Positions 7,758-56,668 of a stretch of DNA of 64,000 nucleotides are shown one piece after another; position 1 is the first letter of the stretch; every line of letters begins with the position of its first letter. The notes beneath the pieces are model-generated. The model saw nothing but the letters and a program-made list of their open reading frames with translations. It had not been told where the DNA came from and searched no databases. This DNA is from Gemmatimonadota bacterium (lineage in GTDB: Bacteria > Gemmatimonadota > Gemmatimonadetes > Gemmatimonadales > GWC2-71-9). A program made the position numbers and the translations under genes. The DNA lies in NCBI GenBank assembly GCA_003222135.1, contig QHUM01000043.1, forward strand, positions 18,379-82,378, read 5' to 3'.

Positions 7758-8567
7758 ATGCCCGCCGATGCGCCACGCGCCCAGCTTATCCACATCGAGA
7801 CCGACCGCCGCTTGGGTCACGAGTGGGACGAGTGGGACGGCAAGCCGCTTCCCGGCAACGGCGACTTCTCCGCGCCTCCTGGACTGTTCTTCCGGGTCGC
7901 CGCTCTGACGCTGGTGGTCGGCTGCGGTGCGGCGGGGGCGTTGATCTTCCTGCTCGCCCCGCGGCTCGAGGCCCTGCTTCCGGCGCTGCCCGCGCTGCTG
8001 TGGGGCACGCTGGCGGTCGTCGCCGGCGCGAGCGCGGTGTGGTTCGCGCTGTTGCTCCTTTCCTTCTATGGGGGCGTGCTGCTGTTGCCGGGGCGGCTGC
8101 TGGAGCGGGGGCCGTACCTGCAGCTCATGAGCTTCACCTCCTCCCTCTCCCGCCTCGTCGGCAGGCGGGATTGGGCGGAGCACGCCGCGATCGACGTCTA
8201 TAACGCCCTCGCCGAGCGCCGTCGGCGCAGCGTGGGCAAGGGCGAGCTGCTGGTGTTGATCCCACGCTGTCTCTCGAAGCAGGCGCTGGATGGCGTGCTG
8301 GCGATCGCCGGACGCTACGAGGTGCCGGTGTTCGTGGCGACCCGCGGGCAGCTGGCGCGGCGCGTGATCCGCGAGCGACGCCCCCGGGCCGTCGTGGCCG
8401 TGGCGTGCGAACGCGACATGACGACCGGCCTGCGGGACGTCGCCGGCAAGCTCCCGGTCCTCGGGCTCACGATGCGCCTCCCCAACGGGCCGTGCAAGGA
8501 CGCCATGGTCGACCTCGACGTCATGGAGCGGTGGGTGAGGAGTTGGGTGTCCCAAAGCGCTTCTTGA
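7758..8567 (+). CDS. DUF116-family membrane protein
   Basis: Two N-terminal TM segments, then LVLIPRCL, VATRG, VAVACERD, NGPCKD. Start ATG 7758, within ORF 7749..8567. Confidence 0.75.
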   Translation: MPADAPRAQLIHIETDRRLGHEWDEWDGKPLPGNGDFSAPPGLFFRVAALTLVVGCGAAGALIFLLAPRLEALLPALPALLWGTLAVVAGASAVWFALLLLSFYGGVLLLPGRLLERGPYLQLMSFTSSLSRLVGRRDWAEHAAIDVYNALAERRRRSVGKGELLVLIPRCLSKQALDGVLAIAGRYEVPVFVATRGQLARRVIRERRPRAVVAVACERDMTTGLRDVAGKLPVLGLTMRLPNGPCKDAMVDLDVMERWVRSWVSQSAS

Positions 8568-9102
8568 GCGCCGCGACGAGAGAATCGGCGATCGCGTGCC
8601 CCGCGTGGGTCTTCGGCACGACTAACTCGAGATCGCGCTCGGTGCGGGACGGGTCGTAGCGCGGCCGCGAGACGGTCTCCACGGTAAGCTGCGTCTGTCC
8701 CGGCACGTAAGGATCTGCCCAGCAGCGAATCTTCACCGTGGCGGCGAGGTCGGGGACGTCTCCGGCGCCCCGAAATGACCGGCGGGATCGCGTGTCATAC
8801 CAGGCCGTCTCCACATACCCGTCGCGCACGTTCACCCGCTCGACCTGCAGGCTTTCCGCCGCGACCAGTGTTGCGATCTCGGGCGTCACCCGCCCCGGGG
8901 GGGCATCGAGCACCAGCCGCGCGGCCTGCGGGTCCGGCAGGAAGTCGGGTCGCGTGGTGGCGGGAGTGCAGGCGACTAGAAAAAGACAAATACAATTGCG
9001 GATTGCGGATTTCGGATTGCGGATTGAGATGGGGCGGTCGTGGTGCACCCGGACGCCAGCGTTTCCAATCCGGAATCCGCAATCGACAATCCGCAATCGC
9101 AT
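8521..9102 (-). CDS. Hypothetical lipoprotein whose signal peptide contains repeat-derived sequence
   Basis: Lipobox LVAC. ATG at 9102 overlaps the upstream TGA by 1 nt. The N-terminus is encoded by the heptamer arrays at 8994-9100. Confidence 0.6.
   Translation of the reverse strand: MRLRIVDCGFRIGNAGVRVHHDRPISIRNPKSAIRNCICLFLVACTPATTRPDFLPDPQAARLVLDAPPGRVTPEIATLVAAESLQVERVNVRDGYVETAWYDTRSRRSFRGAGDVPDLAATVKIRCWADPYVPGQTQLTVETVSRPRYDPSRTERDLELVVPKTHAGHAIADSLVAALKKRFGTPNSSPTAP
8994..9100. repeat. Inverted pair of heptamer arrays, (GATTGCG)x5 ... (CAATCCG)x5
   Basis: Left arm 8994-9028 and right arm 9066-9100, both imperfect, separated by a 37-bp spacer. Confidence 0.9.
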
Positions 9103-9686
9103 CAGTGTTTATGCGGCGGCGTGCCGGGGGGATGCGTATGGCCGGCGGGCTTCGCCGTGTCGGTGGGCGCTGCGTGCTCGTCCTCGTCCGCCTCGCCGGG
9201 GTGATGGTGGTGTCCGAGCTCGCGGTCGCGCATCTCGGTCTGCATCGTGGCGGCCGGAATCCCCGCCGCGTGGTCGAACACGAGCTTCCCGCCGATCCGC
9301 GCCGTCCAGACGATGCCGACCAGCCCCGCGAGGCTGAGCAGGCGCAGCGCCGTCTCCTCCACGCCGCCGAGTCGAGCGCGGCGCAGCAGCCGCCACGCCA
9401 GCACGACCGTGAAGATGCCCATCGTGACCAGCGCGAGCGTCTCGTGGGTTTCCATCAGCTCGTGGATCGCCTCGCCGTGCTCGATGACGTCTTCGGCTTC
9501 GAGTCCCGCGACCACGGCCACCCAGCCGCCGATCACGCCGGCCCACAGGGTCCAGAGCGCGGCCGCCTGAAGCGAGGCGCGTTTGGTGAGCCACGCGGCG
9601 ACATCGAACAGCACCGTCACGAGCAGCAAGGCGGCGGGGAGGTCGTTTACCGCCGCGTGGAAGCGGGGCCAGTCGTAGCCGAACAT
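9102..9686 (-). CDS. DUF2231-like membrane protein with His-rich C-terminal tail
   Basis: HAAVNDLP, four TM segments, AGLEAED, METHETLAL, GGKLVFDHAAG, tail HHHHPGE...HTHPPGTPPHKH. Confidence 0.7.
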   Translation of the reverse strand: MFGYDWPRFHAAVNDLPAALLLVTVLFDVAAWLTKRASLQAAALWTLWAGVIGGWVAVVAGLEAEDVIEHGEAIHELMETHETLALVTMGIFTVVLAWRLLRRARLGGVEETALRLLSLAGLVGIVWTARIGGKLVFDHAAGIPAATMQTEMRDRELGHHHHPGEADEDEHAAPTDTAKPAGHTHPPGTPPHKH

Positions 9687-13654: not shown

Positions 13655-15676
13655 TCAGTGGATGAAGCTGACCCAGCCCATCTCGTTCGCGACGATCGCG
13701 TGGGTGCCGCTTGCAGTGAACCCGATGTAGCGCGCGTTCCCCCCGGTGCGGACGGAATCACGCAGCGCGCGCGTCGCGCGGTCGAGCACGTACACCTTGC
13801 CGTCCGCCAGCGTGCTCACGTACAGCTGGGCGTTGTCCGGCGTGACGGCGACGTCGAAGGCATTACGGACCCGCCCGCTGCCGATCGCGTACTCGAGGAA
13901 CGTCGCGCTCCCTGATGGCAGGTCGCGCGCCAGGAGCTTGCTGCGCTCGATGTCTGTGGCGAACAGGACGGAGCCGTCGCGCGAAACGGCGACGTTCTGG
14001 ATGCGGGCGCCCGTCACGACATCCGTGTGGACGATCCTGTTGTTGCGCAGATCCACGGTGCGGATCGTTCCCTCGTCTCGCGCCGCGACGTACATACACG
14101 GTGCGAAGGGATGGAAGGCGACGCCCGTGAGGATCATGCCGGCGGTCGGGATCTGCGCCACCACCTGGCCCGTAGCGGTGTCGATCACGTACACGCCATA
14201 GTAATCGGTGAGCGCGTACAGCCGGCTGCCGTCCGGCGACAGGCCGGTCGTGAGGATGCTGCCTTCCGGCACGGTGGCAGTGCCGAACGCCTGATTGGTC
14301 GCCACGTTGATAAACGTGACGGTGCCCGCGTCCTGGTCGCTCACGTACGCCGTCCGGCCGTCGGGGCTCATGCGGACCTGCGACGGCAGGTCCCCTACCG
14401 GGAACGGCGCCGAGAACGTGGTCGAGGGGAGGTCGGCGCGCACCGCGGAGGCGGCATGCGCCTGAGTGACATAGACCACACCCGACGGCGACACGGCGAC
14501 GGCGAACGGCGTACCGTCCAGGGCCACCGAGTCCACCGACGCGAGGCCGGGATGGCCGAGCCCTCTCGGGGCCGTGCCGACGGGGGGTCGCAGGCACACG
14601 GGTGACCCCGCGTACGGATCCTCATACACGAAGTCCACCCACCCCATCTCGTTGGCGATGACGGCGTGCGTCCCCGTCCGGCTGAAGCCGATGTACCGGG
14701 CGCTCCCTCCGGTCATGATGGAGTCGAGCACGGCGCGCGTCGCCCGATCGAGCACGTACACCTTGCCGTCCGCCAACGTGCTCACGTACACCTGGGTGTT
14801 GTCGGGCGTGACGGCCACGTCGAACGCGTTGCGGACTCGCCCGCTCCCGATGGCGTACTCGAGGAAGGCCGAGCCCTGCGCCGTGAGGTCGCGCACCAGC
14901 AGCTTGCTGCGCTGGATGTCCGTCGCGAACAGCTGCCCGCCGTCCAAAGAGACGGCCACGTTCTGGATCCGGGCGCCGGGCACGGTGTCCGTGTGGATGA
15001 CGCTGTCGTTGCGCAGATCCACCGTTCGGATCGTCCCTTCGTCGCGCGCCGCGATGTACATGCAGGGCGCGAACGGATGGAACGCCACGCCCGTGAGCAG
15101 GCGTCCCGTGGCGCTGCCGGGAATCGAATCGATTACCTGGCGCGTGGCGGTGTTGATGACGTACACGCCGAAGTAATCGGTCAGCGCGTAGAGGCGGTCG
15201 CCTTCCGGCGACAGCCCGAGCGTGAGGATACTGCCGGCCGGCACGGGGATGGCCGCGACCGCCTGGTTGGTCGCCACGTCGACGAGCGTCACCGTGTGCG
15301 AGTCTTGGTTGCCCACGTACGCCGTCTTGCCGTTGGGATGGATGCGAACCTGCGACGGGAGGTCCCCGACGGCGAACGATGTCGAGAGCATGGTGGACGG
15401 GAGGTCGGCGCGCACCGCAGATCCCGCGAGGCCTTGCGTGACGTAGACGACGCCCTTCGCTGACACCGCGACCGCGAAGGGCATGCCCGCAAGGGGCATG
15501 GTCGTGTGGCCGGTGAGAGCGGGGTGGCCGCGGCCGGTCGGCGCGGCGCCCACGGGTGGCTGCTCGCAGCGCGCCCAGGACGCGAGCAAGGACGTGAACT
15601 GGTCGTTCGCTGTCGGCGAGTTGCAGGCGGCGAGGACGAGGGAAGGCACACCCACTAAGGCCACACGACGAAGCAT
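13655..15676 (-). CDS. Lipoprotein with two tandem YVTN/YncE-type beta-propeller domains
   Basis: Signal peptide MLRRVALVGVPSLVLAAC (lipobox). Two units of about 324 aa, each starting C..PPVG.AP.G.GHP and ending ANEMGWV.F. Confidence 0.85.
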   Translation of the reverse strand: MLRRVALVGVPSLVLAACNSPTANDQFTSLLASWARCEQPPVGAAPTGRGHPALTGHTTMPLAGMPFAVAVSAKGVVYVTQGLAGSAVRADLPSTMLSTSFAVGDLPSQVRIHPNGKTAYVGNQDSHTVTLVDVATNQAVAAIPVPAGSILTLGLSPEGDRLYALTDYFGVYVINTATRQVIDSIPGSATGRLLTGVAFHPFAPCMYIAARDEGTIRTVDLRNDSVIHTDTVPGARIQNVAVSLDGGQLFATDIQRSKLLVRDLTAQGSAFLEYAIGSGRVRNAFDVAVTPDNTQVYVSTLADGKVYVLDRATRAVLDSIMTGGSARYIGFSRTGTHAVIANEMGWVDFVYEDPYAGSPVCLRPPVGTAPRGLGHPGLASVDSVALDGTPFAVAVSPSGVVYVTQAHAASAVRADLPSTTFSAPFPVGDLPSQVRMSPDGRTAYVSDQDAGTVTFINVATNQAFGTATVPEGSILTTGLSPDGSRLYALTDYYGVYVIDTATGQVVAQIPTAGMILTGVAFHPFAPCMYVAARDEGTIRTVDLRNNRIVHTDVVTGARIQNVAVSRDGSVLFATDIERSKLLARDLPSGSATFLEYAIGSGRVRNAFDVAVTPDNAQLYVSTLADGKVYVLDRATRALRDSVRTGGNARYIGFTASGTHAIVANEMGWVSFIH

Positions 15677-17259: not shown

Positions 17260-18942
17260 TCAGTACCCTGCCGCCATTCCGTCCTTTCTCGGATCCGAGC
17301 CGCCGGCGTAGCCCCGCGGCAGCCGCATGATCGCCTGCGCTCCGCCGAAGGTGACGGCAGCGTCAGGCGTCACATCGTGGCCCAACGCGGCGAGCGCATG
17401 TCGCACCGACTCGGCAATGGGCGCTTCCAGCGCGACCTGCCGCCCCTCCAGATGCCGGAACCGCGCCGCGTCGATCGCGTCCTGAAGATCCATCCCGAAC
17501 ACGATCAGGTTGAGCAGCAGCTGCACGTGGCCTTGCGGCTGCATCGAGCCGCCCATGACCCCGAAGCTGAGCCAGGGCGCCTCGGCACCGGTGCCGTCCG
17601 GACGCGTGACGAACGCAGGGATGATGGTGTGGAACGGCCGCTTCCCCGGGGCGACCGTATTCGGCAGTCCCGGCTCGAGCGTGAATCCCGCCCCGCGGTT
17701 GTGCAGCGCGAACCCGGTGCCGGGGACGACGACACCGGCGCCGAACGCATCGTACAGCGAGTTGATGAACGACACGATGTTGCCGCTCGAGTCGGCCACG
17801 GTGAGGTAGATCGTCTCGCTCGATGTCATCGGCTTCCCCGGCGCGGGACGGTCGGCGGCGCGGGCCGGGTCGACCAGCGCCCGGCGCGACGCGGCGTAGG
17901 CATCCGTGAGGAGGTGCGCTGCGGGTACGGTCATCGCCGCGGGCTCCCCCACGTAGTGCGCGATATCGGCGTACGCCAGTTTCTTCGCCTCGATCAGGAG
18001 ATGCAGATAGCGGGCGCTGTTGTGACCGAGCGCCTTCAGGTCGTACGGCTCGAGGATTTTGAGCATCTCGAGCGTCGCGACGCCCTGACTGTTCGGCGGG
18101 AGCTCCCACACGCGATAGCCCTTGAACGTCGCGGAGATCGGCTCGACCCATTCCGGCCGGTGATTCCGGAAGTCGTCGACCGTCAGGTAGCCCCCGAGGG
18201 CATGGACGCGCTCCGCGATACGGCGACCGAGCGCGCCACCGTACAGGGCGCCGATCCCCTGCTGCGCGATGAGTCGCAGCGTCCCCGCCAAGTCGGGATT
18301 CCGGAACCATTCGCCGGGGCGCGGGGCTCGGCTCCCTTCCACGAGATAGGTCGCCCGCGCGCCCTCGTCCTTCCGCAGCTTGGCGACCTCGGCGCTCCAT
18401 TCGGCGGAGATGATCGGGGTGACCGGAAAGCCGTCCTGAGCGTAGCCGATGGCTGGTGCGAGGGCCTGCGCCAGCGTCACGGTCCCGAAACGGCGGAGCA
18501 GGGCGTCCCATCCCCCGAGCGCACCCGGGACGGTGACGTCCTCGACGCTTTGCTGCGGCATCGTGGCGTGGCCCTTCGCGAGCAGCGCGTCGCGCGTCAT
18601 GAGACTCCCGGCGCGACCGCTGCTGTTGAGTCCGTACAGCTTGCGGTCCGTGGCAGACCACACCATGGCGAACATGTCTCCGCCGATTCCGGTCATCGGC
18701 GGCTCCACCACGTTGAGCACGGCGGCGGCCGTGACCGCGGCGTCGACGGCATTGCCGCCGCGCTCGAGCACCGCGAGGCCCGCGGCGGTCGCGAGCGGCT
18801 GGCTCGTGGCGATCATGCCGCGCGGCGCGTATACCGTCGAGCGGTGCGCCAGCGTGGTGGGACGGGGAGGCTGCTGCGAATCGGCCGCTCGAGTCATAGT
18901 AAGAAGCAGGGTGACCAGCGTCAGGTGGCGCGTACGGGTCAT
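17260..18942 (-). CDS. ggt: Gamma-glutamyltransferase
   Basis: Signal peptide, GGNAVDAA, TGIGGDMF, SSETIYL (Thr nucleophile), PGKRPFHTIIP, GVMGG..QPQG, GGSDPRKDG. Confidence 0.93.
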   Translation of the reverse strand: MTRTRHLTLVTLLLTMTRAADSQQPPRPTTLAHRSTVYAPRGMIATSQPLATAAGLAVLERGGNAVDAAVTAAAVLNVVEPPMTGIGGDMFAMVWSATDRKLYGLNSSGRAGSLMTRDALLAKGHATMPQQSVEDVTVPGALGGWDALLRRFGTVTLAQALAPAIGYAQDGFPVTPIISAEWSAEVAKLRKDEGARATYLVEGSRAPRPGEWFRNPDLAGTLRLIAQQGIGALYGGALGRRIAERVHALGGYLTVDDFRNHRPEWVEPISATFKGYRVWELPPNSQGVATLEMLKILEPYDLKALGHNSARYLHLLIEAKKLAYADIAHYVGEPAAMTVPAAHLLTDAYAASRRALVDPARAADRPAPGKPMTSSETIYLTVADSSGNIVSFINSLYDAFGAGVVVPGTGFALHNRGAGFTLEPGLPNTVAPGKRPFHTIIPAFVTRPDGTGAEAPWLSFGVMGGSMQPQGHVQLLLNLIVFGMDLQDAIDAARFRHLEGRQVALEAPIAESVRHALAALGHDVTPDAAVTFGGAQAIMRLPRGYAGGSDPRKDGMAAGY

Positions 18943-21805: not shown

Positions 21806-21846
21806 CATTCGCAATCCGAAATCCGCAATCCGCAATCCGCAATTTT
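21806..21846. repeat. Heptamer array (CAATCCG)x~5, single arm
   Basis: CATTCG CAATCCG AAATCCG CAATCCG CAATCCG CAATTTT. Same unit as the arrays at 8994-9100. Confidence 0.9.
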
Positions 21847-33046: not shown

Positions 33047-33507
33047 GACGTCCCACTGACTTTCCCCACCTTTCGCTCCGGCTCTTCCACGGCCTCACCT
33101 GGATGATGAGACGCCTGCTCCTCGATGTAGCGGATCGCTCCGGCCAGCTGTTTGGGGCTCACCGTTGTGGCGGAGTACTCCCGCGACCATCGTAGGCCCA
33201 AGATGTTTCCTGGAAGACGACTCGCCGCATAGCTGCTCCCGCCCTTCAAGAACTGCACGAGTCGCGGGATGTCGATTCGAGGAGCCGTGCGCACCAGCAG
33301 ATGCACGTGGGAGCGAAGAATGGCCAGGACGACTATCTCGGCTCGCTCTCGGATTGCGGTGCGACGAAAGTAATCGCCGAGGAAGTCGCGCGTGGTGCGA
33401 TCGATCATGGGCTGCCGATCGCGCGTCGTCCACGCGAGATGGATATAGATCTGGTGGGCGGTCACGGTCGTGCCTGGGGTGTCGAGTCGTCTCAGTCGTG
33501 TTCCCAT
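33043..33507 (-). mobile_element. tnpA: Y1 HUH transposase (IS200-like TnpA / RAYT), no tnpB
   Basis: IYIHLAWTTRDR, SHVHLL (HUH), FLKGGSS, WSREYSATTVS, IRYIEEQASHH (catalytic Tyr). ATG at 33507. Confidence 0.85.
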
Positions 33508-44108: not shown

Positions 44109-45342
44109 GATCACGCGCCTAATCTATCTGCTCCTGTTCGTGTCGCCGCAGGTGCTGCTCTATCTGTACCTGCGCGAGCGGCTGCCGGACCCCTCACGGC
44201 CCGCGCGGGCGCGGCTGCTGCGCGTCGGCCTCGCGACGACGTTCGCCATCTTCAACCTCCCCTGGGTCCTGGTCGCCGACCGGGCGCTGTCCGGGAGCAT
44301 GTGGGGCGTGGGACGGATCCCGTACCTGGGACCCTGGATCGCCTGGCAGCTGCTCGGGTGGATCTTCGGGGTGCTGGTGGCGGTGTACGTGATCGTGAAG
44401 CTGGTCGTTCGGGGGAGCAGGGAGCTGGGAGCGGCACTGCTCCGCGCGCGACGGCCCGCAGAGCACCGGGACGAACCGCTCCCCGCTCCCGGCTCTCTAC
44501 TCTCCCGCCGCCGCTTTCTCGCCCGCGCCACGTACTCCTACGCCGCCGCGGGCGCCGCGCTGTCGACCTACGGCATCTGGAGCGCGTACCGTCTCCCTCA
44601 GCTCACGCGTCGCACCCTGACCTTCCCGAACCTGCCGCTCGGGCTCGACGGCCTCACCCTGCTCCACCTCTCCGATCTGCACGCGGGCATCCACCTGGGC
44701 GCCGACCGGATGCAGGAAATCGTGCGGCAGGTGAACGCGCTCGCGCCGGATCTGATCGTGCAAACGGGCGACATGATCGACATTTCCCGCGCCTACATCC
44801 CGGCGTACGTGCACGCGTTCCGCGAGCTACGCGCGCCACTCGGCGTCGTGACCGTGCTCGGAAACCACGACCGTTACACCGGCGAGCGCGAGGTGATCCG
44901 CGGCTGCCGGGATGCGGGACAGGTGTTTCTCCAGAACGACTGCCACCTGATCGAGCGTGGCGGCGCCACGCTGGCGCTGCTCGGCATCGACGACCCGCAC
45001 AACTGGACGGCGGACGACCCCCAAGCCGACGACGTCGCGGCCACGCTGCGGTCGGCGCCTGCACCGGCGTTCAAGATCCTGCTCGGGCACCGACCAGGCG
45101 CGTGGGATACGGCCGCACCGCTGGGCATCCCGCTGACGCTCGCCGGGCACATTCACGGGGGGCAGTTCTACCTGCCCGGGATCCGCTGGTCTCCCGGGCG
45201 ACTGATCACGAAGTACGTGATGGGGCATTTCCAGCGCGGGGACAGCCAACTGTACGTGAGTCGCGGGATCGGCGTGGTCGGCGTGCCGATTCGCGTCTTC
45301 ACGCCGCCGGAGATCGAGCTGTTCACGCTGCGGCGTGCCTGA
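44107..45342 (+). CDS. Membrane-bound metallophosphoesterase (YkuE/YaeI-like)
   Basis: N-terminal TMs, SDLHAG, TGDMID, LGNHD, LGHRP, AGHIHGGQ, YVSRGIG. Confidence 0.9.
   Translation: MITRLIYLLLFVSPQVLLYLYLRERLPDPSRPARARLLRVGLATTFAIFNLPWVLVADRALSGSMWGVGRIPYLGPWIAWQLLGWIFGVLVAVYVIVKLVVRGSRELGAALLRARRPAEHRDEPLPAPGSLLSRRRFLARATYSYAAAGAALSTYGIWSAYRLPQLTRRTLTFPNLPLGLDGLTLLHLSDLHAGIHLGADRMQEIVRQVNALAPDLIVQTGDMIDISRAYIPAYVHAFRELRAPLGVVTVLGNHDRYTGEREVIRGCRDAGQVFLQNDCHLIERGGATLALLGIDDPHNWTADDPQADDVAATLRSAPAPAFKILLGHRPGAWDTAAPLGIPLTLAGHIHGGQFYLPGIRWSPGRLITKYVMGHFQRGDSQLYVSRGIGVVGVPIRVFTPPEIELFTLRRA
44413..44507. repeat. In-frame inverted heptamer arrays, (GGGAGCN)x3 ... (GCTCCCN)x3-4
   Basis: Arms at 44413-44433 and 44478-44507 with a 44-bp spacer, inside the TM-to-catalytic linker. 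Confidence 0.7.
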
Positions 45343-56099: not shown

Positions 56100-56668
56100 G
56101 CGCGCTGCCGCTCAACATCGGGGAGACGGGAGACGGGAGAAGTACGCTCCGCTCGCCGCACGGCGTCGGCGCCCCGGGCGTGACCTCTCCCGTCTCCCCT
56201 CTCCCGGGGGAAGCGGTCGTGCGGGGGGCGACGCTCCTCGACGTCCCGACCCTCGAGTCGCTCATGGCCCCTTACGTCGCCACCGGCGACCTGCTGCCGC
56301 GCAGCAACTACGATCTGTGCCGGCACGTGAAGGAGTATCTGGTCGCCGAAGCACCCGACGGTGACCTCGTGGGATGCGGCTCCCTCAAGATCTACTCGCG
56401 CGACCTGGCCGAGGTGGCGGGGCTGGCGGTGCGTGCGGACCAGCAGGGCACCGGCGTGGGCCGGGTCCTGATGGAGGCCTTGGTGGCGGAGGCGCGGAGC
56501 AGCGGCATCGCCGAAGTGCTGGCGCTGACGCGCAAGCCCGCCTTCTTCCACAAGCTCGGCTTCGTGCTCGCCGAAAAAGGCCATTTTCCCCTCAAGGTGT
56601 GGGCGGACTGCGCCAGGTGCCCCAGGCAGAACTGCTGTGACGAAATCACCGTCGTTCTGAAGTTGTAG
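56096..56668 (+). CDS. argA: Short GNAT-type amino-acid N-acetyltransferase
   Basis: LLPRS, GCGSLK, AEVAGLAV, GTGVGR, FFHKLGF, KVWADCARCP...CDE. The N-terminal extension is repeat-derived. Confidence 0.8.
   Translation: MSALPLNIGETGDGRSTLRSPHGVGAPGVTSPVSPLPGEAVVRGATLLDVPTLESLMAPYVATGDLLPRSNYDLCRHVKEYLVAEAPDGDLVGCGSLKIYSRDLAEVAGLAVRADQQGTGVGRVLMEALVAEARSSGIAEVLALTRKPAFFHKLGFVLAEKGHFPLKVWADCARCPRQNCCDEITVVLKL
56121..56206. repeat. In-frame inverted heptamer arrays, (GGGAGAC)x3 ... (TCTCCCS)x3
   Basis: Arms at 56121-56141 and 56186-56206 with a 44-bp spacer. Translates as GETGDGR...SPVSPLP. Confidence 0.85.

Follow-up and report, generated by a model that had tools for sequence, protein, structure and literature searches.

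In the 64,000-nucleotide stretch of Gemmatimonadota contig QHUM01000043.1 analyzed here (positions 18,379 to 82,378; hereafter the window), a 107-base hairpin of 7-base repeats lies on the minus-strand mRNA directly past the stop codon of a DUF2231 membrane protein gene (window positions 8994-9102). The hairpin belongs to a dispersed family of such elements, with about 53 loci of the GATTGCG type, and is a short copy that carries no gene. Judged from the reading frames of its orthologues, it is probably translated in its entirety, from the ATG at its foot through both arms, as part of the signal peptide of the lipoprotein encoded downstream. The locus comprises the following features:

9102..9686, minus strand: upstream gene for a DUF2231 membrane protein (PF09990, E = 2.8e-17) with the His-rich C-terminal tail HTHPPGTPPHKH

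9100..9102, minus strand: ATG start codon of the lipoprotein open reading frame (ORF), in a TGATG overlap with the upstream stop

9066..9100, minus strand: mRNA-strand 5' arm with about five units of the GATTGCG type, translation RLRIVDCGFRIG; on the plus strand the right array, CAATCCG GAATCCG CAATCGA CAATCCG CAATCGC, as read in the sequence

9029..9065, minus strand: spacer or loop, partly self-complementary, holding the in-frame GTG 9046-9048 (codon 19)

8994..9028, minus strand: mRNA-strand 3' arm with about five units of the CGCAATC type, translation ISIRNPKSAIRN; on the plus strand the left array, AATTGCG GATTGCG GATTTCG GATTGCG GATTGAG, as read in the sequence

8968..8994, minus strand: h-region CICLFLVA and lipobox LVAC, with T-rich codons ending in A or T and the codon of Cys45 at 8968-8970

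8521..8967, minus strand: mature lipoprotein of 148 amino acids, of a TPxTTRPDF... family that adjoins DUF2231 across Gemmatimonadales

The arrangement of five plus five heptamer units around a 37-bp spacer, given in a preliminary description of this locus, was recovered from the sequence itself, by Tandem Repeats Finder and by a repeat search. Tandem Repeats Finder reports two period-7 arrays of 4.6 copies (92% matches) and 4.7 copies (76%), while the repeat search extends the inverted repeat to 45-nt arms (8982-9026 and 9066-9110) that are 80% complementary. The spacer is G+C-rich and, according to where one trims the degenerate end units, measures 37-39 nt. With up to two mismatches allowed, the 14-mer GATTGCGGATTGCG occurs 11 times in the window against 0.77 occurrences expected, a count that none of 100 shuffles reached. 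The minus-strand RNA of positions 8975-9115 folds with a minimum free energy of -60.5 kcal/mol (z = -5.96) and about 40 paired positions, placing the ATG at 9100-9102 in base pairs at the foot of the stem. A search of Rfam with the element returned only chance sub-threshold matches to microRNA models.

The minus-strand ORF 8521..9102 encodes 193 amino acids and reads MRLRIVDCGFRIGNAGVRVHHDRPISIRNPKSAIRNCICLFLVAC followed by TPATT. Its ATG shares its A with the TGA of the DUF2231 gene (9102-9104), and the element begins 1 nt past this TGA. Canonical in-frame starts ahead of Cys45 are limited to the ATG (codon 1), a TTG (codon 3) and the GTG in the spacer (codon 19). The preliminary description had named the ATG at 9102, coupled to the upstream stop through TGATG, as the only ATG, had noted that no in-frame ATG, GTG or TTG stands between the second arm and the lipobox LVAC, and had argued that at least one arm must be translated; ORF and sequence agree with the first two statements, and the third holds as worded, the spacer GTG being compatible with it. 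No Shine-Dalgarno motif was found upstream of the ATG on inspection of the sequence. The predicted n-region contains seven Arg, one Lys and two Asp residues, and the 3' arm of a GATTGCG element encodes the repeat RNPQSAI. Assessed from motif and alignment, the lipobox fits the pattern [LVI][ASTVI][GAS]C, with LAAC, LFAC and LWAC in aligned orthologues. The lipoprotein has no family match in Pfam or NCBIfam; its mature part is conserved in more than 33 genomes, and the identical 193-residue protein occurs on 17 independent metagenome contigs, where gene callers choose the same ATG.

We collected the junction between the DUF2231 and lipoprotein genes from about 38 distinct Gemmatimonadales genomes (metagenome-assembled genomes from soil), 23 of which carry a hairpin element between start codon and lipobox. 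The distance from ATG to Cys in these 23 loci falls into 14 length classes (21, 22, 25, 34, 37, 39, 41, 42, 43, 44, 48, 55, 63 and 64 codons) and the elements into at least five unit types, and the frame is kept in every case. Frame 0 is free of stop codons in all 23 loci, as opposed to stops in frame +1 in 13 and in frame +2 in 6. The in-frame ATG overlaps the upstream stop (TGATG or TAATG) in 15 of the loci and follows it by 3-13 nt in six more, so that 21 of 23 lie within 13 nt of the stop. Where stop and start overlap, the distance from stop to Cys takes values of 134, 131, 128, 125, 119, 104, 77, 68, 50, 47 and 41 nt, all of them 2 modulo 3. Four loci (L004, L008, L035 and L036) have no other ATG, GTG or TTG ahead of Cys. 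Since the length is not free modulo 3, as a non-coding element would allow, selection acts on the reading frame through the element. Short of experiment, this frame conservation is the strongest available evidence for translation, and it supports the earlier proposal of a palindromic repeat that resides in coding sequence and is translated within a signal peptide. The orthologue alignment also bore on whether the segment is a clean insertion, and here the answer was divided: element-free or remnant forms exist (L011, L032 and L038), with ordinary lipoprotein leaders of 13-17 amino acids (MRRRGGLALLALSLWAC, MQVRFRILVFIAAC and MRTRNAHSLVLLLVAC) that start from the same TGATG or TAATG overlap, but no exact empty site for the window's own copy was found within its genus.

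The upstream gene shows conservation of its own. The C-terminus of the DUF2231 protein (window 9102-9140 and orthologues) is a conserved His/Pro-rich tail, HxHAPGTPPHKH, and the gene is always followed by the lipoprotein gene with a stop/start overlap, which suggests a functional pair, possibly metal-related.

At this junction the element has changed in sequence while remaining in place. Its units differ between orthologues (GATTGCG, GAATGCG/GAGTGCG, GAACGCG, GAATGGG and an unrelated palindrome of the GGCGGTCGGG type), and within each genome both arms match, the variable dinucleotide being TT/AA, AT/AT, GT/AC or AC/GT on the left and right, respectively. One locus, L030, is a hybrid: its left arm consists of GATTGCG and its right arm of CGCATTC, and it has spacer and right arm in common with the neighbouring species L029. 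L003, from genome G001 of the same genus, has a spacer that is reverse-complementary to the L026/L027 type (alignment score 48 flipped vs 12 in the same orientation), while the window's own spacer is oriented as in L026/L027 (28 same vs 14 flipped); the spacer of L040 is also flipped relative to L029, judged by eye. These alignments indicate that the centre of the element was inverted at least twice with the frame staying open, as expected from recombination between inverted arms. In every element-bearing orthologue the ATG is predicted to be paired at the foot of the stem. The element was already at the junction when the genera diverged and has turned over where it stands, so that a single clean insertion event is not reconstructable. 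The earlier statement that a repeat element had 'colonised' coding sequence is thus probably right, with the qualification that the element is older than the divergence of the genera. Other genera show unrelated palindromes at the same junction, namely L007 (genome G008) and L031/L037, with arms of 10-12-nt units (GGCGGTCGGG... and GGCGACGGATGA...). One palindrome of this kind (GGCGGTCGGG), with a fold of -121 kcal/mol, remains in frame and has an ATG at its outer edge.

The preliminary description had looked to a genome-wide count of the heptamer arrays. In the 3.38-Mb genome (69% G+C, 79 contigs), this count gave 72 period-7 arrays of the GATTGCG unit. Strict pairs of the form (GATTGCG)n-spacer-(CGCAATC)n number 22, all of one polarity and none in the opposite order, and a looser GATTGCG probe returned 53 loci, 38 of them two-armed. 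When all units are counted, there are 53 inverted pairs and no direct pairs, with the G-rich arm first in 52 of the 53; sister families are built of GGGAGAC/GGGAGGC, GGGGAGC, GAATGCG, GAACGCG and CAGGGGT. The GATTGCG copies share the termini C(G/A)ATTGCGG...CCGCAAT(C/T)G and have either a recurrent 14-nt loop, GAAGrGCGnnCGTC, or a longer loop ending in CGACCTTCCAT; with termini and loops in common, they form a true dispersed family. No target-site duplication is visible in the flanks of 36 aligned copies. Among the copies outside genes, 27 of 41 start within 15 nt of the stop codon of the gene reading into them, and 25 of 29 intergenic copies stand between co-directional genes. Sixteen copies end 0-7 codons ahead of the next start codon, and seven leave the downstream gene without a start codon of its own. 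A survey of the phylum located (GATTGCG)3 in 22 of 301 Gemmatimonadota genomes, with a patchy distribution and most copies in the present genome. This family with its post-stop site, the pairing of the ATG in the stem and the arms of the same type around PF05635 genes (see below) had gone unmentioned in the preliminary description.

Further repeats occur in the window. A solo (CGCAATC)x4.9 array at 21810-21843, between two minus-strand genes and a few bases past a stop, has no partner arm and is a half element or a decayed pair, and at 56121-56206 a (GGGAGAC)3 ... (TCTCCCx)3 pair, about 20 nt past a TGA, represents the genome's second large family. A gene for a RAYT-like Y1 transposase (REP-associated tyrosine transposase; PF01797, 66 bits) lies at 33115-33459 on the minus strand and has two paralogues in the genome, the one on contig C67 with at least five tandem repetitive extragenic palindromes (REPs) on each side. 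A partnership of the REP/RAYT kind was considered for the heptamer elements and rejected: the three Y1 transposase genes are flanked by other, classical REP palindromes and by no heptamers.

Twelve copies lie in frame within coding regions, among them one in the gene for UvrA (C77:60031-60102). The stretch that it encodes, IADCGLPIADLNDHASQSAIRNPQSAI, aligns largely to gaps of the Thermotoga UvrA structure sequence, and the element adds roughly 12-24 residues compared with that protein. Ribosomes must therefore read through such hairpins in an essential repair gene. Four of the seven read-through cases concern secreted proteins in which the element stands directly ahead of the hydrophobic core of the signal peptide:

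the lipoprotein of the window

a CRTAC1-like lipoprotein (GTG-[element]-LLLLLAAC)

a TonB-receptor-like protein (MRS-[element]-LAGALILALL)

a fourth protein (…IVAIALSLALQA)

Additional in-frame copies are found in an asparaginase-II-like gene (C67:12732) and an ImuB-like gene (C4:213380). In the window itself, a GGGAGCx / CCGCTCC pair at 44413-44495 (C37:62790-62875) has a coding signal in the same frame on both sides and is probably translated within a gene.

How a hairpin could come to be part of a signal peptide may be explained as follows. Elements of this family normally lie 0-15 nt past a stop codon; as the TGATG overlap leaves no non-coding room, the copy here lies just behind the ATG and within the downstream ORF. 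Translation would start at this ATG, most likely by termination-reinitiation of the ribosomes finishing DUF2231, a route that we infer because the ATG is buried in the stem and no Shine-Dalgarno sequence precedes it. The ribosome would unwind the hairpin and read arms and spacer as 30-35 extra residues of net positive charge, by which the signal peptide would gain a longer n-region. Cleavage at the lipobox Cys45, presumably by signal peptidase II, would remove the extension and leave the mature protein unchanged. Because it is cleaved off, the n-region would be the least harmful site for 25-35 extra mildly basic residues, and the protein would tolerate the element as a passenger without needing it.

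Several observations weigh against this interpretation. The in-frame GTG at codon 19 could serve as the start, in which case only the second arm would be translated, and a leader of 44 residues ahead of Cys is unusually long compared with the usual lipoprotein length of about 15-30. Because the orthologues share ancestry, their length classes do not count as fully independent events, and gene context in the genome-wide census came from a crude codon-bias caller (3053 calls). In addition, the nine codons from hairpin to Cys are T-rich in element-bearing orthologues, with 32% A/T third positions vs 12% elsewhere (p = 2e-4, ignoring phylogeny) and 78% at the window's own locus, which hints at an extra constraint at the nucleotide level that a neutral passenger does not explain. 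In window 8968-8994 and loci L002-L040, A/T-ending codons are far commoner than in the rest of the gene or in element-free orthologues; the T-rich h-region codons may represent a dual-coded U-tract or a local mutation bias.

The alternative that survives best takes up this last point. The hairpin could be a selected cis-regulatory RNA device, for instance a gate on translational coupling, a processing site for RNase III or an attenuator whose tail is U-rich, with translation forming part of the control. We consider this improbable on balance, although it retains some weight: at least 23 genomes from several genera have a strong hairpin, of varying sequence, at this junction, its stem sequesters the start codon in every case, the T-rich stretch with its A/T-ending codons follows the hairpin in element-bearing orthologues, and RNase III acts on similarly built hairpins of intervening sequences (IVS; PMC4990558). 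However, selection at the RNA level would favour the sense strand, and no such asymmetry is seen over 48 elements, where the sense strand is the more stable in 23 and the antisense strand in 24 (Wilcoxon p = 0.71), with 93 vs 88 G-U pairs. U-rich tails are missing past the elements genome-wide on either strand, the T-rich stretch being confined to this locus, and a consensus scan for an intrinsic terminator, considered as a candidate function, found none at 8700-9400. Moreover, a regulatory role is unlikely for the in-frame copies that reside in UvrA and other genes, and the element-free orthologues function with the bare TGATG overlap. The symmetry of the folds and the missing U-tails and terminator favour a symmetric, DNA-level process that would keep the arms complementary over selection for RNA structure.

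A start at the spacer GTG (9046-9048) is unlikely. The 5' arm and the ATG would then be untranslated intercistronic RNA, and only the second half of the spacer and the 3' arm would be translated (MHHDRPISIRNPKSAIRNCICLFLVAC), which is still one arm. The GTG is in frame and would give a more ordinary signal peptide of 27 amino acids, and L002 and L006 also have a GTG 24 codons ahead of Cys. It is nonetheless not conserved, given that L004, L008, L035 and L036 lack any internal start; it lies inside the folded spacer with no Shine-Dalgarno-like sequence before it, and its use would leave unexplained why the distance from the upstream stop to Cys is 2 modulo 3 over 11 lengths. We regard it as still less probable that the arrays act as a phase-variation switch, in which an array that gained or lost a single 7-nt unit would go out of frame and switch off the lipoprotein. 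Seven is indeed not a multiple of three, heptamer simple-sequence repeats are prone to slippage, and unit numbers vary between species; yet all 23 species alleles are in frame, the arrays comprise only 4-5 imperfect units, and all 17 contigs encode the identical ON protein, although that look-up finds ON alleles only. The regulatory and phase-variation readings do not exclude either start site, so the likelihoods given here do not form a closed set. Finally, a start at a non-canonical codon past the second arm, for example the ATT at 8989-8991, 8 codons ahead of Cys, or a gene that is not expressed, deserves hardly any credence, because the ATT would give an uncharged 7-residue leader (MCLFLVAC) unfit as a signal peptide, a downstream start leaves the frame conservation over 14 lengths unexplained, and the mature protein is conserved across genomes and identical on the metagenome contigs.

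Arms of the same kind also surround whole genes. The genome contains seven genes of family PF05635 (TIGR02436; four-helix-bundle, S23p/Avd-like), a family that resembles the Avd protein of diversity-generating retroelements (PMC10053308), and every one of them stands between inverted arms of tandem repeats, with a unit of its own in each case:

C67:13805-14244, arms GATTGCG/CGCAATC, with the PF05635 gene at 13873-14166

C46:52027-52519, arms GGGAGAC/GTCTCCC

C62:2250-2740, arms CAGGGGT/ACCCCTG

C4:118050-118570

C29, arms of the GGCGGTCGGG type

C47

C6

An inverted match of 16 nt (at most two mismatches) brackets seven of the seven PF05635 genes but only 6 of 278 control small genes. The arm types of four PF05635 genes match dispersed short families and two are unique; for the GGCGGTCGGG-type arms at C29, matches in the genome may be due to chance in a G+C-rich genome. 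Compared with the inner ends of copies that carry PF05635, the loops of the short elements are weakly similar (z = 2-4 for 8 of the 14).

The PF05635 copy on C67 sits between a stop codon and obg, and its gene is kept at this junction in 11 other genomes, including G001. The arm units there are GATTGCG, GAATGCG, GAGTGCG, GAAGTGC, GGCGTGC or a mixture of GAACGCG and GAATGCG, and they always match on both sides where both could be read. In 11 relatives the PF05635 gene is absent at the obg junction. Eight of these junctions are empty or nearly so, the stop abutting or overlapping the obg start (TGATG/TAATG, or a one-base overlap with a non-ATG start); G017 and G289 have a 19-25-nt spacer with no element, and one genome has a gene-less hairpin. 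Filled and empty obg junctions taken together, the PF05635 gene and its arms behave like a unit inserted where stop and start overlap, a site of the kind seen at the lipoprotein junction. The arm unit at obg fits the number of GATTGCG array matches in G000, G093 and G077 (GATTGCG arms; 92, 25 and 11 matches) and in G015 (GAAGTGC arms, 0 matches) but not in G176 and G043; G001, which has GATTGCG arms at obg, was outside the array survey.

This architecture recalls the IVS of 23S rRNA. The stem-bounded IVS of Coxiella burnetii, which RNase III excises, contains an S23p ORF and variable heptamer repeats (GACAGAT x2-3; Warrier et al. 2016, PMC4990558). Like the IVS of Coxiella, Leptospira and Salmonella, the elements described here have a long terminal-inverted-repeat stem, with long forms that hold a PF05635 ORF in the loop and short forms that are bare hairpins of about 100 nt. 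Unlike the long IVS forms, the window copy has only its 37-nt spacer and no PF05635 ORF, whereas the GATTGCG-armed C67 copy carries one. Classical IVS have their place in helices 25 and 45 of 23S rRNA, from which RNase III removes them; mRNA junctions and the interior of ORFs are the sites of the present copies, and excision in the manner of an IVS would destroy the lipoprotein start codon. We tentatively entertain the possibility that the short heptamer hairpins are gene-less derivatives of IVS-like units that carry a PF05635 gene between the same arms and insert at the first bases past stop codons, although we hold it to be less probable than not. Such insertion would explain the filled operon junctions, the occasional donated stop codons and the landing in the next ORF at a TGATG overlap. 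The PF05635 pentamer would then recognise, renew or spread the arrays, and such a partner would explain why families are unit-specific, why the G-rich arm so strictly comes first and why the arms change in concert.

Several known repeat classes resemble the window element in part. The short tandemly repeated repetitive (STRR) sequences of heterocystous cyanobacteria consist of 7-nt tandem units (such as CCCCAGT) at many dispersed loci at gene ends; 7-nt tandem unit, dispersal and gene-end position are common to both, and STRR families have their own units. Mycobacterial interspersed repetitive units (MIRUs) are intercistronic operon repeats that overlap the flanking stop and start codons and preserve translational coupling, and they are 46-101 bp direct tandem repeats with a small ORF of their own that are not known to form hairpins or to be translated into the downstream protein. 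The operon junction and the stop/start overlap are thus shared with MIRUs, while the hairpin and its proposed translation into the downstream protein set the window element apart.

Facing heptamer arrays are also known from Xanthomonas. Rehm et al. 2015 reported 70-75 convergent GGGAATC heptamer pairs per Xanthomonas genome near stop codons, for which no function was found, as well as single GGGGA(C/T)T arrays in Nostoc (PMC4692102). As in the Rehm-type pairs of Xanthomonas campestris and X. axonopodis, the 7-nt arrays face each other, are able to form a stem-loop and occur at tens to hundreds of loci, mostly 0-50 bp from ORF ends, where they can overlap stop codons, with a minority inside ORFs; the arrays here have at least three copies of a 7-nt unit and are convergent with the G-rich arm first. 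GATTGCG has no G-tracts, so the G-quadruplex rationale is inapplicable to it, although the sister families GGGAGAC and GGGGAGC do have G-tracts. The present elements also belong to another phylum and include a copy that is probably translated in a signal peptide, and the co-variation of arms and the flips of the spacer seen here were not reported by Rehm et al.

In-frame palindromes have precedents as well. Small palindromic repeats that lie in frame in ORFs, including a YPAL copy that is reported to form part of a predicted signal peptide (YPO1552), were reviewed by Delihas 2008 (PMC2229807). [quoted passage not shown] In contrast, the present arms consist of tandem heptamers, with a unit that differs from genome to genome, and neither a target duplication nor a cognate transposase was seen; dispersed copies that share sequence beyond chance are a feature of both. 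The preliminary description had likened the element to RPEs and STRRs, a comparison that is apt for its in-frame residence on the one hand and its heptamer arms on the other but does not amount to membership in either class; for RPEs it concerns in-frame residence, the RPE sequence consensus standing outside it.

Precedents therefore exist for the repeat class, in the Xanthomonas heptamer pairs, STRRs and IVS, and for signal peptides derived from repeats. What is new is the unit and the phylum, the translation of a whole hairpin with the start codon in its stem, proposed here, and the recurrent use of signal-peptide n-regions, together with persistence at one junction across genera with turnover of units, co-variation of arms and inversion of the spacer. 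If the proposed translation is correct, a very stable hairpin of 7-nt repeats can be kept in a translated region, in the part of an export signal that is cleaved off, across several genera. The placement of the elements would follow a simple rule: they land past stop codons, and where stop and start overlap, the N-terminus of the next gene absorbs them, which signal peptides would tolerate best. For annotation, odd long N-termini of Gemmatimonadota proteins ('...IRNPQSAIRN...', '...DCGLRIA...') should be read with caution, as they derive from repeats. The junction further offers a natural test bed for coupling through a stem-sequestered start codon, for the concerted change of arms and for the tie between PF05635/S23p proteins and repeats. 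Should the short hairpins indeed derive from PF05635-bearing units, the intervening sequences of 23S rRNA, heptamer repeat pairs and in-frame 'hairpin cassettes' would be one class of elements with a dedicated protein.

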